DNA of 64,000 nucleotides from an uncultured Gammaproteobacteria bacterium. GTDB taxonomy: Bacteria > Patescibacteriota > Microgenomatia > Levybacterales > UBA12049. Positions 2,964 to 61,286 of the stretch are shown in pieces. The position numbers and the translations under genes are program-made. The notes under the pieces were generated by a model. It saw nothing but the letters and a program-made list of their open reading frames with translations. It ran no database searches and was not told the DNA's origin. Each line of letters starts with the position of its first letter. Position 1 is the stretch's first letter. Where the stretch lies: positions 14,845 to 78,844 of the forward strand of contig CAZLZN010000001.1 of NCBI GenBank assembly GCA_964564035.1, given 5' to 3'.

Positions 2964-4811
2964 TTACCCAACAACTGCGTAAATTCTTCTCTGCTTATTC
3001 CCTATATTTTCCTGCTTTATTATCTTAAATGATTTTACTTTGGAAGTAAAATCAACATGCGGTCCTCCGCAAAATTCTATCGAATAAGACTTGTCCGGAC
3101 TCTTTGAATCTCCTCCGATAAAATATATTTTCGATTTTTCGCCGTATGTATCCATAAAAAGTCCGATAGCGCCCATATTCTTCGCTTCTTTTGTCGGAAT
3201 AAGCTCAAAATGCACCTGAATATTTTCCTTGATCTTGTTATTTATCTCTCTCTCAAGCTGAGAGATTTCTTCATCGCTTAGCTTCCTGTCAAAATTAAAA
3301 TCAAACCTCACCCTCTCGGTCGTGATGTTCGATCCTGTTTGATGAAGCTGCTTCCCGAACATATCACGAAGCGCCTGGTGCAATAGATGCGTTGCGGTAT
3401 GCCCCATTATTGTTCTCTCCTGATGATCTGCAAGTCCACCCCGGAATTTTTTCTCGGCTCCTGCCTTTGAAAGCTTTTGGTGCGCTTCCATTTTTTCCGC
3501 AAATGCTTTTTTATCAAAAACATAACCCAGACTGGTTATTTGTGTTGGCGAAAGACCATGCGAAGCGTACAAATAAAACGCGTCGTCCGCTGTAATTTCT
3601 TTATTTCCCATCAGCTCATCCCCGGTTTTAGTACCCAGTCCGTACTTTTTCTCTATATAATGACGGGCGCGTCCAAGTGCGTTGCTATATTTATCTATCT
3701 CTTCAACTATAGTTAGCTTTATACTCTCAAATTTATCAATTAAATACGCATCTGTATCCTTATACTGCTCAATAATTTGTTCAATTATCGGACTTATATC
3801 ATTGCCCCCGAGCTTTGAAAAATGATCGTACCCCCTCCTTATCAATCTACGCAGAATATAACCTTGTTCCGTATTGGAAGGCGTAACTCCTTCTGAAATT
3901 ATGAAACTTCCCGCGACCATATGATCCGTGATTATCCTCATATCCTTATCATTATTCGAGTATTCTTGATTAGTAGTTTTTTCGATTGACCGGATGATCG
4001 GATAAAAAAGCGAAGTCCTGAATACGTCAGGCTGATTTTCTATAGCCAAAAGCATTCTTTCAAGACCTCCCCCGAAATCAACATTGGGCTTCGGAAGGAG
4101 CGTAAGCGAACCATCGGGCATTTTTTTATACTGCATGAATACGCTGTTGGCAATCTCGATAAATCTTCCGCAGTCGCAATTTACATGACAATGACTATCC
4201 TTATACGGACTTTTTTCATGAATTTTGTGTTCTGCTCCGAAATCATAAAACACTTCGCTATCCGGCCCCCCCGGCTCACCCGGCGGCATATTGTTCGGCG
4301 GTCCGCTTCTGGACCACCAGTTTTTATCAACTCCGTATTCCAAAATCCTATTCTCGGGATCAATACCGCTTTTAGCAAATAACTCTTTCCAGATCTCGAT
4401 CGATTCCTTATCTTTACCCACATTTTCGGTACCTTTAAAGACCGTAGCATAAAGCTTCTTCGGATCAAGCTTCAGATTATGCGTCAAAAATTCCCAGATC
4501 CACGGCAATTGTTCCCGCTTGAAATAATCCCCGAGACTCCAGTTCCCAAGCATCCTGAAAAAAGTCGTGTGCCTGTTGTCGCCTATTTCATCTATATCGA
4601 CAGCCCTGAATGAATTCTGGACATTTACAAGCCTTGTTCCCTGCGGGTGTGTCTCACCGAGAAGATACGGAACAAGCGGCTGCATACCCGAACTTGTAAA
4701 GAGTGTAGTCGGATCATTTTGCGGAACAAGCGGAGAATTAGCAATCTGATTATGCCCTCTTTTCTTATAATATTCTATAAAAGATTTCAAAATCTCATGC
4801 GCCTTCATCAC
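2964..4811 (-). CDS. alaS: Alanyl-tRNA synthetase, short form: catalytic, tRNA-recognition and editing domains only, with no C-terminal C-Ala domain.
   Basis: N-terminus ...FIEYYKKRGHNQIANSPLVPQNDPTTLFTSSGMQPLVPYLLG...FRMLGNWSLGDYFK is a class II AlaRS core. Editing-domain motifs HTATHLLHQALR and CGGPHV are present. The protein is 615 aa versus about 870 aa typical. Confidence 0.9.
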   Translation of the reverse strand: MMKAHEILKSFIEYYKKRGHNQIANSPLVPQNDPTTLFTSSGMQPLVPYLLGETHPQGTRLVNVQNSFRAVDIDEIGDNRHTTFFRMLGNWSLGDYFKREQLPWIWEFLTHNLKLDPKKLYATVFKGTENVGKDKESIEIWKELFAKSGIDPENRILEYGVDKNWWSRSGPPNNMPPGEPGGPDSEVFYDFGAEHKIHEKSPYKDSHCHVNCDCGRFIEIANSVFMQYKKMPDGSLTLLPKPNVDFGGGLERMLLAIENQPDVFRTSLFYPIIRSIEKTTNQEYSNNDKDMRIITDHMVAGSFIISEGVTPSNTEQGYILRRLIRRGYDHFSKLGGNDISPIIEQIIEQYKDTDAYLIDKFESIKLTIVEEIDKYSNALGRARHYIEKKYGLGTKTGDELMGNKEITADDAFYLYASHGLSPTQITSLGYVFDKKAFAEKMEAHQKLSKAGAEKKFRGGLADHQERTIMGHTATHLLHQALRDMFGKQLHQTGSNITTERVRFDFNFDRKLSDEEISQLEREINNKIKENIQVHFELIPTKEAKNMGAIGLFMDTYGEKSKIYFIGGDSKSPDKSYSIEFCGGPHVDFTSKVKSFKIIKQENIGNKQRRIYAVVG

Positions 4812-6824: not shown

Positions 6825-7505
6825 CTAGGGAATTTTATCAATGCTTCTAATCAACCTTTCATCATCTCTCCCCGGAACATTGACAGCCGTAGATACTCCG
6901 TAAGACACCATTTCCGCGTCAGGATATGGCGATAAAAGCGGAAGTAGTATGTCCGGCTCTGTAGTATCCGGGTTAAGCCACGCGTCCTCAGCGTCCCTCC
7001 GAAGTATCACGGGCATTCTGGGATGAACCTGGCCCACCACCCCGTTTGCCTGTGTGGTAATTATTGTGTAGCTTGTAACCTCGTGTCCGTCTTTCGGATT
7101 CACCCACACATCATATAGCCCCGCGAACGCGAACATCCCTTCATTTTTCAATCTGAAATAATACGGTTGACTCGGTTTCTGTTTTTTATCCCATTCATAA
7201 AAACCCGTAGCCGGCACCAGGCACCTCTGCATTCTGAACGGCTTTCTATATGCAGGTTTATTTTCAATCCCCTCGGCCCTTGCATTGATCGTCTTAAATT
7301 TGAAACTGTCATCCTTGGCCCATGCCGGAATAAGCCCCCAAAACATAAGACCGATCTGATTCGGACTATGCCTGGTGACAACCGGATTCATCTGACCCGG
7401 CGCGATATTATAACGCGGGGACAAATCTTTCAGAGTATTAATCGTTCCAAACCTATCCCGCAACTCCCTCGCTTCCTTTACTACAAGTCCATATCTGCCG
7501 CACAT
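6825..7505 (-). CDS. yedK: SOS-response-associated peptidase (SRAP/YedK/HMCES family); abasic-site DNA-protein crosslinking protein.
   Basis: The protein begins MCGRY... (catalytic Cys2). It carries RYNIAPGQ, FYEW and HPRMPVIL motifs typical of SRAP. It is divergent from lexA. Confidence 0.85.
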   Translation of the reverse strand: MCGRYGLVVKEARELRDRFGTINTLKDLSPRYNIAPGQMNPVVTRHSPNQIGLMFWGLIPAWAKDDSFKFKTINARAEGIENKPAYRKPFRMQRCLVPATGFYEWDKKQKPSQPYYFRLKNEGMFAFAGLYDVWVNPKDGHEVTSYTIITTQANGVVGQVHPRMPVILRRDAEDAWLNPDTTEPDILLPLLSPYPDAEMVSYGVSTAVNVPGRDDERLIRSIDKIP

Positions 7506-7577
7506 AGCAAGAGAATTTTAGATCTTATGTAAAAGAAATAGGTAATAATTTTGCTATACGCACACACCCAAGACACC

Positions 7578-7609
7578 CAAACCCGGTTCGTTTTATGTAG
7601 ACAAACAAG
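7578..7609 (+). repeat. REP-like element copy A (aaacccggttcgttttatgtagacaaacaagg).
   Basis: About 80% identical to the two REP copies flanking the RAYT gene at 10032-10064 and 10769-10800. It contains the GTTTnnnnnnnnnCAAAC hairpin core and sits in the SRAP/lexA divergent intergenic region. Confidence 0.7.
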
Positions 7610-7678
7610 GTGATTTTCAAATAAAGGGCTGATATTAAATTTTAAATATTAAAATTTGGTAATAAATTAAAAATCCCC

Positions 7679-7713
7679 TTGACAGGAAACGATCGTTTCC
7701 TATATATTATACT
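7679..7713 (+). promoter_or_regulatory. lexA promoter with embedded operator: -35 TTGACA (7679-7684), perfect 16-bp palindrome GGAAACGATCGTTTCC (7685-7700) filling the spacer, and a -10 TATATA/TATTAT (7701-7710).
   Basis: Read directly. The palindrome GAAAC-GATC-GTTTC resembles the Gram-positive Cheo/LexA box (GAAC-N4-GTTC). The ATG of lexA lies only about 5-10 nt past the -10, so the mRNA is likely leaderless. Confidence 0.6.
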
Positions 7714-7715
7714 CA

Positions 7716-8284
7716 TGACTATTGATGAAGCAGCCAAAAGAATAAAAAAATTTTATCTGCTCAACAGACGGATGCCGTCATACAAAGAGCTATGCATTGA
7801 GCTGGATCTCTCCTCCAAAAAAAACAGTTTCAAATGGGCAAAAAAACTTATAGAGACGGGCCTGCTTGGGAAAGACAAACAGGGTAAACTCTTTCCCAAG
7901 TCCCTGTTCGCGATTCCCGATTTCGGCATCATCAAGGCGGGATATGCTGCGCCGGCGCACCAGACAGAAAATAATAGCCTGGATTTATATAAATTTATAC
8001 TCGATCTTCCGAATGGAGTTTTCTCTTTAACTATACACGGAGACTCAATGATCGACGCGTCGATCCGGGAAGGAGACATCGCTCTTATTGATCCGAACAA
8101 ACAGCCTCTCCACGGAGATATCGTCGCCGCTTTGGTGGATGGCGAGTGTACTCTCAAATATTTTTACAAAGATCACCGGGGCGTACGCCTTGTACCCGGC
8201 AATCCCGAATATCCCATTATCTATCCGCAAAACGAACTCGTCGTACAGGGAGTATTAATCCATTTAATAAGGAAGTTCAGATGA
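7716..8284 (+). CDS. lexA: LexA repressor (wHTH plus S24 peptidase).
   Basis: Ala-Gly cleavage site (IIKAG-YAAP), GDSM catalytic Ser and a downstream Lys (TLKYF). The ATG at 7716 is preferred over the TTG at 7679, which would read through the promoter. Confidence 0.85.
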
Positions 8285-8412
8285 GGATATTATGTGCTTC
8301 TTTTTGAAATTTAAAAATATTAATTTAATATGTTAAATCAAAACTCAAAAACCATAGGAACAAGCGTCTTAACCATAAAAGGCAAAATGGATCTTTAAGC
8401 CTTGATCTAGGT

Positions 8413-8440
8413 TTTGATCTTTGAGATTTGATTTTTGATC
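8413..8440. repeat. Heptamer tandem repeat (TTTGATC)-like x4: TTTGATC TTTGAGA TTTGATT TTTGATC.
   Basis: Read directly; intergenic, upstream of the small-ORF/polymerase operon. The same unit recurs at 15042-15062. Confidence 0.65.
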
Positions 8441-8526
8441 TAATTTAGCTTGACACGCCTGTTCGTCATCTCGCTCATACTAAATGATGTAAATTAATTT
8501 TCTTAGATAAGCTCTGAAGGGGAGGT

Positions 8527-8787
8527 ATGTTAGAAAAAATACATGAAAAAATTGATGTCATTACTATTTACAAGAAATATCCGGCACGGGTCATTCCATA
8601 TAAAATCAGATGGAACGGTAGAGATCATATTATTACGAAAATCGGGTATCATCACAAAATTCGTAAAGGCCATACGTTCTTTCATATCTTTTCTGTCTGC
8701 TCCGATACCTTAGCGTTCCGCCTTCGCTTTGACACAGAAACTATGTACTGGACGCTGGAGGAAGTATCAGATGGATTTACCGATTAG
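8527..8787 (+). CDS. Small hypothetical protein (86 aa) immediately upstream of, and overlapping, the Y-family polymerase gene; possible accessory subunit.
   Basis: ORF with the purine-rich AAGGGGAGG just upstream of the ATG. The 3' end overlaps the polymerase start by 17 nt. No recognised family. Confidence 0.4.
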   Translation: MLEKIHEKIDVITIYKKYPARVIPYKIRWNGRDHIITKIGYHHKIRKGHTFFHIFSVCSDTLAFRLRFDTETMYWTLEEVSDGFTD

Positions 8788-10015
8788 CAAAAATAAACCC
8801 CAAATTATGCATATTGATCTCGATTCTTGCTTCGCAACAATCGAACAACAGGCAAATCCACTCCTCCGGGGGAAGCCCATCGTTGTCGCCGCACACAATG
8901 CTCCCAATGGATGCATTCTGGCATCGTCTATTGAGGCTAAAAGGATGGGAATAAAAACCGGAATGAGAATTAAAGAGTCGCGCTTAATCTATCCCTATAT
9001 AATAATCCGCACGCCTGACCCGGCAAAGTATCGTGACGTTCATGTCAAATTCAAAAAAATTTTTTCGGATTATTCAAACAAGGTTATTCCTAAGTCAATT
9101 GATGAAGCGATAATAGATCTACATGATATAGAACGACTTAACCTTGACTTGGTTAAAATCGGCCGGGAAATAAAACAGCGAATGAAGACGGAAATAGGAG
9201 AATGGATAAGCTGCAGTATAGGAATCTCTACAAATCGATTTCTCGCTAAGCTTGCCGCAACTATCCATAAGCCGGACGGCCTCGATGTTATAACACACAA
9301 AAATCTGGTTGATATCTACAGCAGGATAGAACTTCTGGACCTACACGGAATCAATGTGCGGTACCAGGCGAGACTCAACGCATACGGAATATTCACGCCG
9401 ATGGATTTCCTGCGGGCAGCCTGTGAAACTCTCGAAAAAAAAGTTTTCTTAAGCATCTGCGGCCGGCAGTGGTATGAAAGAATACGTGGATACGAGACTG
9501 ATGACATCGAATTCAAGACCAAAAGCATCGGTCAACAATACGCGCTAAAAAAGCCGACGGCAAATCCTGCGGAACTCGGCCCCATGATGATGAAACTATG
9601 TGAAAAAATGGGAAGAAGACTGCGTCACAAAGGCTATACCGCGCATGGCATCCACGTGAGAATTAATTATAAAGACGGGACGACTTGGCATAGAGGTCGC
9701 ATGACGAATAGTGAGCTGTACACTACAATGGAACTATATAAAGTGGCGCTTCTTATTTTTAACCAGCAACCGGAAATTAAGCAAGCCACACTTCTTGCAG
9801 TAAGCTGTTACAAGCTGGAAGCAAACGTAAAATCCCAAATGTCTTTATTTGACGCTGATCACACAAAACATAGAAAAATGTCTGATGCTATGGATGAGAT
9901 AAATGACCGCTGGGGAGAATTTACCGTAACACCAGGCCTAATGCTCGGGACAGAGAATATTATTCCTGACAGCATTGCCTTCGGTCGCGTTAAAGAACTT
10001 GAAAACTTAGAATAA
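8771..10015 (+). CDS. dinB: Y-family translesion DNA polymerase (DinB/Pol IV-like).
   Basis: MHIDLDSCFATIEQ... matches the Y-family N-terminal DxD motif, and SIDEAIIDL supplies the catalytic D/E. A strong SD (GGAGGAA) sits 7 nt before the ATG at 8771, with an alternative ATG at 8807. Confidence 0.85.
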   Translation: MDLPISKNKPQIMHIDLDSCFATIEQQANPLLRGKPIVVAAHNAPNGCILASSIEAKRMGIKTGMRIKESRLIYPYIIIRTPDPAKYRDVHVKFKKIFSDYSNKVIPKSIDEAIIDLHDIERLNLDLVKIGREIKQRMKTEIGEWISCSIGISTNRFLAKLAATIHKPDGLDVITHKNLVDIYSRIELLDLHGINVRYQARLNAYGIFTPMDFLRAACETLEKKVFLSICGRQWYERIRGYETDDIEFKTKSIGQQYALKKPTANPAELGPMMMKLCEKMGRRLRHKGYTAHGIHVRINYKDGTTWHRGRMTNSELYTTMELYKVALLIFNQQPEIKQATLLAVSCYKLEANVKSQMSLFDADHTKHRKMSDAMDEINDRWGEFTVTPGLMLGTENIIPDSIAFGRVKELENLE

Positions 10016-10031
10016 TTTTTCCACAAATGCA

Positions 10032-10064
10032 CGAACCTGGTTTGTTTTATATTGACAAACAAGG
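10032..10064 (+). repeat. REP-like element copy B (left flank of the RAYT).
   Basis: cgaacctggtttgttttatattgacaaacaagg; an inverted partner lies at 10769-10800. Confidence 0.7.
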
Positions 10065-10096
10065 ACAGAGTGCGTAATACTAAATTATCGCTTAGT

Positions 10097-10768
10097 ATGC
10101 CATATAGAAAAATTCCACTTGTAAAAAATGAAATTTATCATATCTTCAACCGAAGCATTGCAAGACAGCCTATTTTTAAAACACAAATAGATCACAAACG
10201 AATTCTTGAGATTATAAACTTTTATAGACATGATACCAGACCCCTACGATTTTCACATTTTAAAAGGTTACCAATTGACCAAAAAAAAGATATCTTAGAG
10301 GAATATGCAAAGAATCAAAAATATCTCGTAGAAATATATGCATACTGCGTAATGCCAAATCATTTCCACTTCTTATTAAAAGCAACTCAAGACTCCGGAA
10401 TTTCAATTTTCATGAGAAACCTGCAACATAGTTATTCTAATTATTTTAATATAAAAAACAACAGGACAGGATCATTATTTCAGTCCATGTTTAAAGCAAT
10501 CAGAATAGAAACTGACGAGCAGCTTTTCCATGTTTCAAGATATATTCATTTAAATCCGGCAACTTCATTTATCATACCTATTGAAGCTCTTGAAACATAT
10601 CAATGGTCTTCATTTAAAGATTTTATAAACAAAGCAACTGAAAGCATGATCAATAAGCAGTATATTTATGAGAATTTTAAAAGCGTAGGAGAATACAAAA
10701 AGTTTGTGTATGATCAAGCTGATTATCAGCGCGAGTTAGATAAAATAAAGCACCTTATCTTCAAATAA
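10097..10768 (+). CDS. REP-associated tyrosine transposase (RAYT; IS200/IS605-like HUH Y1 transposase).
   Basis: HUH motif YCVMPNHFHFLL and catalytic Tyr motif RYIHLNP. Flanked by inverted REP copies, one of which abuts the stop codon. The ATG at 10097 is preferred over the TTG at 10052, which lies inside REP B. Confidence 0.75.
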   Translation: MPYRKIPLVKNEIYHIFNRSIARQPIFKTQIDHKRILEIINFYRHDTRPLRFSHFKRLPIDQKKDILEEYAKNQKYLVEIYAYCVMPNHFHFLLKATQDSGISIFMRNLQHSYSNYFNIKNNRTGSLFQSMFKAIRIETDEQLFHVSRYIHLNPATSFIIPIEALETYQWSSFKDFINKATESMINKQYIYENFKSVGEYKKFVYDQADYQRELDKIKHLIFK

Positions 10769-10800
10769 CCTTGTTTGTCTACCTAAATCAAACCGGGTTC
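10769..10800 (-). repeat. REP-like element copy C (right flank of the RAYT, inverted orientation).
   Basis: ccttgtttgtctacctaaatcaaaccgggttc is the reverse complement of the copy A/B consensus. It contains the GTTTG-N11-CAAAC hairpin. Confidence 0.7.
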
Positions 10801-10875
10801 AGTTAACATATTAACATCGCAATACAACGAGACCTCTTGACCTTGCCCGCTGAATTATTTTATATTTAAATAAGA

Positions 10876-61049: not shown

Positions 61050-61140
61050 TTCCCAACTATTTCTCTTTAAGTATACAGAACATACATCTACAAAATCAAT
61101 ACAGCTATTGACATAAATTTTTATTTAATATAAAGTTATT

Positions 61141-61286
61141 ACTAATCAAGAGTGATGGGGAGAGAATTGGCTCAACGATCCATCCGGCAACCCCGCTAAG
61201 CGGGGTGCCAAACCCAAACCCGTGAGGGAAGGATTAGCTCCGATTATTTCGGGGAAACATCTTACCCCGCTCGGCGGGGTTTTTTT
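61141..61286 (+). promoter_or_regulatory. SAM-I (S-box) riboswitch with an intrinsic terminator.
   Basis: cTAATCAAGAG...GGGGAGAG...GGCAACC...GGTGCCAAACCC...GGATTAG matches SAM-I conserved blocks (AUCAAGAG, GGCAACC, GGUGCUAAAUCC, P1 closure). A terminator CCCCGC-tcg-GCGGGG plus U7 ends 1 nt before the metF ATG. A TTGACA -35 lies at 61108. Confidence 0.8.

Follow-up and report, generated by a model that had tools for sequence, protein, structure and literature searches.

Y1 transposases of the HUH type have been classified by the motif around their catalytic tyrosine, which reads Y---NP in class 2 TnpA-Y1 enzymes and Y---Q in class 1, the IS200 type (Quentin et al. 2018, PMC6006769). Within class 2, subclass 2.1 is characterized by the motifs NH[YF]H, FQ and Y[IV]HLNP, has a median length of 238 aa, and is listed as 'no REP' (REP, repetitive extragenic palindrome) (PMC6006769). 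This subclass is equivalent to Group 1 of the REP-associated tyrosine transposases (RAYTs; Bertels et al. 2017, PMC5581495) and to the TIRYT genes of the TIRtrons (Di Nocera et al. 2013, PMC3733652), and genes of the TIRYT type are flanked by terminal inverted repeats (TIRs) and have been described as being without typical REPs (PMC3733652, PMC6006769). The present analysis concerns a Y1 gene that lies between two inverted copies of a short repeat element, with a third copy nearby, in a 64,000-nucleotide stretch of contig CAZLZN010000001.1 (positions 14,845 to 78,844, forward strand). This whole stretch is referred to as the window, and its own coordinates are used for the features below.

The unit is probably of the REPtron/TIRtron type, that is, a chromosomally fixed and vertically inherited class-2 Y1 HUH nuclease gene (subclass 2.1-like) between inverted cognate elements. 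Its parts and the third copy are as follows.

7578..7630, + strand: solo third copy of the element, right-end type (TAGACA), with an extension of about 20 nt (element 7578-7610, extension 7611-7630).
10032..10064, + strand: upstream repeat, left-end type, identified by inverted arms, consensus, and nhmmer profile.
10097..10768, + strand: Y1 HUH tyrosine 'transposase-like' gene, 223 aa, class 2 / subclass 2.1-like, identified by Pfam Y1_Tnp, motifs, and fold.
10769..10801, - strand: downstream repeat, right-end type (TAGACA), inverted; its first base is the base after the stop codon.

Functionally, the unit is REPtron-like, but is not a canonical RAYT/REP system by the features tested. A sequence-only reading of the window had called it a REP/RAYT system and had described such pairs as characteristic of proteobacteria. 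What holds of the first statement is that a Y1 HUH gene with conserved cognate flanks is present, but the score against the NCBIfam model NF047646 (REP_Tyr_transpos) is 52.3 bits, under the equivalog cut-off of 80, and the motifs are those of subclass 2.1. Of the features expected of canonical RAYTs (NF047646; subclasses 2.2/2.5; Groups 2/3), the score, the GT[AG]G foot, and, in the 64 kb and the relatives scanned, a high-copy dispersed REP/REPIN population of tens to hundreds per genome were all lacking. The second statement applies to the canonical subclasses only, as about 25% of species, from many phyla, possess a class-2 Y1 gene. What is new here is the occurrence of a Y1 gene and repeats of a known type in a phylum from which they had not been described. 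Within the literature library searched, no paper linked REP or RAYT to Patescibacteria or Microgenomates, and the sole co-occurrence was a KEGG annotation in an archaeal genome.

The Y1 protein and its family

The HUH and catalytic tyrosine motifs that had been read in the open reading frame (ORF) at 10097-10768 were confirmed. MPNHFHFLL supplies H89-F90-H91 (HUH), and RYIHLNP supplies the catalytic Y149. The product scores 42.6 bits against the Pfam model PF01797 Y1_Tnp (cut-off 23; E = 7.7e-11). In a family alignment of 42 homologues with 53-65% identity, H91, Y149, I150, H151, and L152 are invariant, and H89, N153, and P154 are kept in at least 90% of the sequences.

The AlphaFold model of the protein has a pLDDT of 90.8. 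Its top Foldseek match in the PDB is 4er8 (E. coli TnpA-REP; E = 1.9e-7), a REP-associated transposase with a REP hairpin bound, which outranks all IS200/IS605 transposases; the matches 4er8, 2xma, 2a6m, and 2vjv span E = 2e-7 to 1e-3. A PDB profile search built from the 42 homologues found the ISDra2 transposase (E = 2e-4) and 4er8 (E = 0.012), and the single-sequence search gave just marginal ISDra2 matches. Because the HUH and tyrosine residues are conserved and the predicted fold is confidently 4er8-like, the enzyme is presumably active. The C-terminus forms a helical extension of about 65 aa, with helices 162-222 lying outside the catalytic core. Pfam returned no match to residues 151-223 at E <= 10 and none besides Y1_Tnp for the whole protein, and no similarity to a helix-turn-helix (HTH) domain was seen.

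The gene is annotated as 232 aa in some assemblies, with a start that then lies upstream, probably a GTG at 10070. The invariant N-terminus of the family, MPYRK, favours the ATG at 10097 over 10070. The adjoining ORFs are dinB and a 70-aa ORF.

A total of 3,837 relatives of the Y1 protein were found at E <= 1e-3. The best 120 of these are 53-93% identical and about 222 aa long, and the named hosts among them are Candidatus Curtissbacteria and Levybacteria (Microgenomates, Candidate Phyla Radiation, CPR). As far as seen, the family appears to be confined to Microgenomates. The closest plasmid relatives, from other phyla, are only 24-35% identical, and the plasmid and phage searches gave distant 'transposase' relatives only.

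Several metagenome-assembled genomes (MAGs) that carry the CPR-type gene and element (L013, L023, L024, L027, L028; CAZPZA01, CAZRWL01, CAZYIC01) are labelled 'uncultured Gammaproteobacteria bacterium'. These have 37-40% GC, their 6-phosphogluconate dehydrogenase (6PGD) is 60% identical to that of Curtissbacteria L014, and the named closest database homologues of this 6PGD are from Microgenomates. The label is probably wrong, judging from these sequence comparisons.

Comparison with the described systems

The protein carries NHFH, LFQ (FQ replacing WQ/WE), and YIHLNP, the last containing the class 2 motif Y---NP as Y149-I-H-L-N-P. By these motifs it matches class-2 subclass 2.1 / Group 1 / TIRYT and not the canonical REP-associated groups, an assignment made by motif matching against Table 1 of PMC6006769 and not by a phylogeny with reference members. 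Four of the six tested features of the subclass 2.1 / TIRtron description fit. The shared features include the NH[YF]H / FQ / Y[IV]HLNP signature, a C-terminal extension (in proteins of about 238 aa there and 223 aa here), an apparently low copy number, and inverted repeats at fixed distances that are not GTAG REPs; repeats that are moderately abundant in some genomes, as monomers, dimers, and clusters, are also listed as a likeness. Unlike the TIRtrons, the present family is hosted by CPR Microgenomates, at the low identity to plasmid relatives given above. The C-terminal likeness to HTH domains described for subclass 2.1 (Bac_DnaA_C, HTH_23, HTH_28) was not detected in the Y1 protein by Pfam, although this domain is heterogeneous within subgroup 2.1.2 (Quentin et al., PMC6006769). 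Likewise, none of the element sequences collected has GGGGWSAS, the majority TIR type of Di Nocera et al. 2013; they contain an iterated CAAACC-N-GGTTTG palindrome instead. TIR types other than GGGGWSAS exist (PMC3733652).

E. coli TnpA-REP (RayT/YafM; subclass 2.2, Group 2) is the best structural match and has the Y---NP motif as well. Its REP/BIME (bacterial interspersed mosaic element) REPtron is also similar in that an apparently single-copy gene lies within inverted hairpin elements that are found elsewhere as singlets and inverted doublets. The two differ in that the identity of the proteins is about 16%, the Y1 protein lies under the equivalog cut-off, NHFH is present here in place of DHLH, an extra C-terminal domain of 65 aa is present here, the guide tetranucleotide GT[AG]G is lacking, and the copies number from a few to tens and not hundreds. 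The TnpA proteins of IS200/IS605 (IS608, ISDra2) share the HUH/Y1 fold and, presumably, the recognition of a single-strand hairpin. In contrast to these, the Y1 protein has Y---NP and not Y---Q, there is no tnpB partner, the flanking hairpins are inverted and not on the same strand, and multi-copy identical elements were not found.

The repeats in the window

The inverted flanks of about 32 nt had been placed correctly to within 1-2 nt. The arms at 10033-10064 and 10769-10800, 32 nt each, are 84% complementary. The upstream repeat consists of the 13-nt palindrome CGAACC-T-GGTTTG, a loop, and then TTGACAAACAAGG. It ends 32 nt before the ATG and contains the -35 hexamer TTGACA at 10052-10057, which forms part of a promoter-like site at 10052-10081 (TTGACA-18-AATACT; AATACT/TAATAC at 17-18 nt). 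The Y1 promoter therefore appears to be built into the upstream element.

A scan of the window with a degenerate 31-nt consensus of the three copies found exactly three sites in the 64 kb, with 0 expected from shuffles. An nhmmer profile of 58 related elements detected the three copies at E = 1e-9 to 1e-8, and the next best site had E = 0.015. A chance origin of the repeats was ruled out by the shuffles and the profile. The 13-nt core palindrome CRAACC-N-GGTTYG also occurs in the window at the three repeat sites only.

The GTTTG...CAAAC hairpin core, which had been read from the sequence, is real but weak. Folded as single-stranded DNA (ssDNA), the left copy has -8 kcal/mol (z = -3.0), the right copy has -4.3 to -4.6 kcal/mol (z about -1.4), and the third copy folds no better than shuffled sequence.

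The existence of the third copy, read at 7578-7609, was borne out. It is 87% (27/31) identical to the left copy over 7580-7610 and is closer to the right copy, with 33/37 positions identical in inverted orientation. Altogether, 51 nt of this region are 82% complementary to 10749-10799. The extension at 7611-7630 agrees at 14/20 positions with the final 20 nt of the RAYT coding sequence when these are read in reverse complement, a score that 13 of 200,000 random 20-mers of the window equalled (p about 6.5e-5), and the similarity to the RAYT gene ends about 20 nt past the element. Because of its TAGACA type and this match to the end of the RAYT coding sequence, the third copy is best read as the right-end relic of a second, oppositely oriented RAYT unit that has probably been lost. 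It is no evidence for a dispersed or trans-mobilized REP population in the source genome. With two flanking copies and one right-end relic, the system in the window is nearly quiescent.

Conserved layout and anatomy of the element

To what extent the layout is conserved can be seen from a survey of 15 distinct homologous loci. An upstream element of the same orientation is present in 15/15 loci, ending 20-32 nt before the ATG and containing TTGACA in all of them. An inverted downstream element is present in 13/15, starting 0-30 nt past the stop codon, and 12 of these 13 have TAGACA. At the Curtissbacteria locus L014 1934-3600 (= L041/L049), there is no inverted downstream element within 120 nt of the Y1 gene; such an element lies about 1 kb beyond the gene (3571-3600), and the sequence after it resembles the 3' end of a RAYT gene. 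Either about 1 kb of DNA may have been inserted near the end of the gene, or this may be a second, decayed copy.

The element is about 33 nt long and consists of a CRAACC-N-GGTTYG palindrome, a 7-nt spacer, and T(T/A)GACAAAC(A/C)(A/G)GG. Column counts over 58 distinct elements gave C(A/G)AACC-N-GGTT(T/C)G, the partly conserved spacer nA(A/C)TAGn, and T(A/T)GACAAAC(A/C)(A/G)GG. Complete copies add TTTG and so have the same 13-nt palindrome a second time, at a distance of 23 nt. In 40/58 elements the first of the two palindromes is perfect. In ssDNA, a hairpin of 9-10 bp is possible, and the stem CCNGGTTTGn/ACAAACnnGG has at least 7/10 Watson-Crick pairs in 47/58 elements. The evidence for the stem consists of these pair counts and two lineage-level compensatory changes, and most stem positions are fixed by the very pattern with which the elements were collected. 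The tetranucleotide GT[AG]G does not occur in the column counts, where the foot reads C(A/G)AA-CC, and the element is therefore not a canonical REP.

The sequence of the element co-varies with the lineage of the protein, as comparison of the loci indicates, while the layout and the length are retained. The lineage of the window has CAAACC-N-GGTTTG...TAGACAAAC, and a Levybacteria lineage has ACACACC-G-GGTGTGT...ACACAT, in which T is replaced by G in the left arm and, in compensation, A by C both in the right arm and in the palindrome's left half. A further lineage has CCGAACC-C-GGTTCGG with different outer arms and a long symmetric structure. Some genomes have head-to-head doublets with a common central ACCWGGT beside the gene, and such doublets are present at other sites, too.

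Stability of the gene

Identical Y1 proteins were found in one genomic context each in every case checked, one of them on 24 contigs from many samples. The locus of the window is 100% identical in five other samples (six sequencing runs); the samples sharing it include the SRR31850039-43 series. In two Levybacteria, the Y1 gene is syntenic with 84% aa identity; eight of its nine neighbours are 64-81% identical and the ninth, DUF2130, is 31% identical. No sign of recent movement of the gene is apparent in these comparisons, and its behaviour is housekeeping-like, as has been described for RAYTs (Bertels et al., PMC5581495).

The proposal that the unit offers a handle on genome plasticity was not upheld. 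The unit in the window is probably a stable, single-copy, domesticated gene beside an SOS cassette and not an active source of plasticity, and the third copy is a relic.

Copies without a Y1 gene in related genomes

Scans with CCNGGTTYGNNNNNNNTWGACAAACNRGG covered 185,579 species genomes and the metagenomes of the Joint Genome Institute (JGI), with roughly nine chance matches expected per scan (an estimate from the information content of the pattern and the database size). The scans returned 20 stretches from the species genomes and 36 from the metagenomes. About 7 of the 20 genome stretches are from unrelated high-GC or non-CPR organisms and resemble the chance background, and the others come from CPR contigs of low GC. 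In Curtissbacteria RIFCSPLOWO2_12_FULL_41_16, four contigs together carry 6 exact and 9 relaxed copies, and just one of the four has the Y1 gene. The 312-kb contig Ga0315279_10000032 has 7 exact matches at five places, with one RAYT detected in the element-bearing stretches that were fetched. The density of copies in this relative is about 1 per 40 kb, which is in line with the figure for Group 1 of Bertels et al., about 12 flanking 16-mers per replicon, and is far below canonical REP densities. The REP/RAYT reading was to be given up if there were neither a Y1_Tnp match nor further copies; the Pfam match and the additional RAYT-less copies in relatives speak for keeping it in this respect.

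Sixteen of the 26 gene-less copies in relatives lie in short intergenic gaps, often 0-30 nt from a stop codon, and the other 10 lie in frame inside long ORFs. Nine in-frame copies (locus label and coordinates) are listed here.

L029 5971-6023: in-frame copy.
L054 449-501: in-frame copy.
L031 1775-1804: in-frame copy.
L064 328-357: in-frame copy.
L061 3385-3414: in-frame copy.
L055 1536-1588: in-frame copy.
L017 4383-4412: in-frame copy.
L025 1376-1405: in-frame copy.
L038 6849-6878: in-frame copy.

Seven of the element-bearing ORFs are clearly intact by above-threshold Pfam matches, namely phosphoglycerate kinase (PGK), 6PGD, M24 peptidase, release factor, MiaA, Sua5/YrdC, and a nuclease; the other two (phosphoenolpyruvate (PEP)-utiliser and immunoglobulin (Ig)-domain) are sub-threshold. 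The in-frame copies are always read in one of two ways, as QTRFxxxRQTG or as KPGLxxxDKPGL. A PGK doublet is shared, at the same position, by two genomes with 55% identity between their PGKs. The copies in the M24 peptidase and at another site in PGK look like insertions of about 11 aa.

Two further observations concern the surroundings of individual copies. The strains represented by L042 (864-897) and L043 (4817-4850) are 99.96% identical on one side of the element and 91% identical, with indels that include a 136-aa extra ORF, beyond it. The breakpoint, which is located between tsf and frr, coincides with the GG end of the element, and the pair is not a clean case of presence and absence of the element. 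On contig Ga0315279_10000032 (L050 1473-1528 and 2267-2322), two identical direct copies of the element occur at a distance of 794 nt, each being part of a 56-nt repeat (93% identity).

Interpretation and alternative explanations

By analogy with E. coli TnpA-REP and with the TnpA proteins of IS608 and ISDra2, the Y1 protein of a REPtron/TIRtron-type unit would bind the folded element on ssDNA, for example on the lagging-strand template. The strand would be nicked via Y149, with a metal held by H89 and H91, and would then be rejoined. As an outcome, the element would now and then be copied or exchanged at other sites in trans, with the Y1 gene staying in its place. Binding to the upstream copy would overlap the Y1 promoter, so that autoregulation, in the form of repression of its own gene, would be probable.

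Several observations weigh against this interpretation. At -4 to -8 kcal/mol the hairpins have little stability, no folding is seen for the third copy, and no free repeat copy is present in the 64 kb, where all three are at the Y1 gene or derived from one. The central N of the palindrome shows no co-variation with its hairpin partner, A-A being frequent there, and an ssDNA hairpin and a dimer-bound duplex palindrome are therefore both compatible with the data; the data are explained equally well if a dimer or the C-terminal domain recognizes a duplex palindrome. In addition, the context of the Y1 gene differs between genera, which may be due to earlier moves of the entire unit or to ordinary loss of synteny.

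If the unit were an autonomous insertion sequence (IS), the repeats would be its terminal inverted repeats, the whole 770-bp unit would transpose, and the solo copies would be excised or decayed relics. Among the RAYT groups of Bertels et al., only Group 6 is more IS-like than Group 1. The inverted repeats bracket the gene exactly, the RAYT 3'-end relic at the third copy in the window means that a second unit once existed, and the neighbourhoods of the units differ between genera. We consider this explanation improbable, as neither multiple nor identical copies of the unit were seen and exact proteins have a single context on up to 24 contigs, and the syntenic gene of the two Levybacteria shows higher conservation than the genes around it. 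The majority of the dispersed copies, singlets or doublets with a complete palindrome, retain nothing of the gene, and many are in frame in housekeeping genes, which decay of a 770-bp unit would not yield. To our knowledge, Y1 enzymes do not use duplex terminal inverted repeats.

It is quite improbable that the repeats are cis-regulatory only, serving as a promoter operator and a 3' stem-loop bound by the Y1 protein or by a host factor, with the other copies produced by ordinary duplication or recombination. A -35 box within the upstream copy in 15/15 loci, the low copy number, and the finding that conservation is highest in a 13-nt duplex-type palindrome, which is perfect in 40/58 and has a centre that does not co-vary, would all be expected of such a role. 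It would leave unexplained the copies on other contigs, both intergenic and within unrelated genes and as singlets and head-to-head doublets, and the full element at the same 6PGD site in three genes that are 72-76% identical. Furthermore, no T-run follows the downstream hairpin in the window, and the hairpin is therefore unlike a terminator.

Finally, that the elements are LexA (SOS) operators is hardly credible and was rejected: SRAP, an S24 LexA-like gene, and dinB are nearby, with the third copy between SRAP and lexA and the left copy after dinB, and the CGAACC-N-GGTTYG core resembles CGAAC-N4-GTTCG, the form of Gram-positive SOS boxes, but the half-sites are spaced by N3 and not N4, the elements flank Y1 genes that have no adjacent SOS gene and also occur in coding regions, and lexA has its own perfect palindrome, GGAAACGATCGTTTCC, as a better operator candidate.

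The 6-phosphogluconate dehydrogenase site

In 6PGD, the element lies on native codons and the length of the protein is unchanged, the 31-residue segment having the same length in 114/114 orthologues. Four of the 114 carry the element-encoded QTRFE(L/I/T/V)ARQ(T/A)G. In three of these four, for which DNA was obtained, the full element covers corresponding codons, and the genes have pairwise identities of 72-76% only.

L027 6021-6050; L085; L086; L087: 6PGD site of related Microgenomates, QTRFE-x-ARQTG codons.

An element-free orthologue that is 79% identical to one carrier has the exact CAAACCAGGTTTG palindrome (13 nt, QTRFE), after which come native sequence and a GGG at equal distance. The pattern could reflect either one old event followed by reversions or repeated overwriting of a look-alike site. 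We tentatively raise, as a rather unlikely addition to the REPtron/TIRtron-type unit proposed above, that the element of this CPR clade also spreads by length-neutral overwriting, through Y1-mediated cassette exchange or an oligo-annealing-type conversion on ssDNA. If this were true, the 6PGD before/after pairs would show the cleavage and joining points of a RAYT-type enzyme, which would touch on the dissemination of REPs.

Neighbouring genes and other features of the window

The third copy is intergenic, between the divergent SRAP and lexA genes, and belongs to the surroundings of an SOS-type cluster at 6825-10015. This cluster comprises an SRAP (YedK-like) peptidase (- strand), a LexA/UmuD-like S24 protein, an 86-aa ORF, and a DinB/IMS polymerase, and is bracketed by two repeat copies of the same orientation (7578 and 10032). 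The 86-aa ORF (8527-8787) has no family match and overlaps the start of dinB. The perfect 16-nt palindrome of lexA is located at 7685-7700 (+), exactly between the -35 (TTGACA, 7679-7684) and the -10 (TATATT) of the S24/LexA-like gene. It is the single site of its type in the 64 kb, with none upstream of dinB or SRAP, and from its position it is likely an autoregulatory LexA operator. A SAM (S-adenosylmethionine) riboswitch (RF00162, 55.2 bits) at 61140-61239 (+) was the sole Rfam family above threshold in the window.

Significance

The biology of REPs and RAYTs has so far come almost entirely from proteobacteria. The present family, which is large and new with about 3,800 public proteins, brings the layout of a gene between its own repeats to the Microgenomates. 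Class-2 Y1 genes have been reported to be enriched in large genomes, and despite this the layout persists here in genomes of about 1 Mb. For the window alone, the practical message is modest. For the family, the low copy numbers, the distinct left-end and right-end types, and the in-frame copies in conserved genes provide clean material for inferring target sites and joining points.

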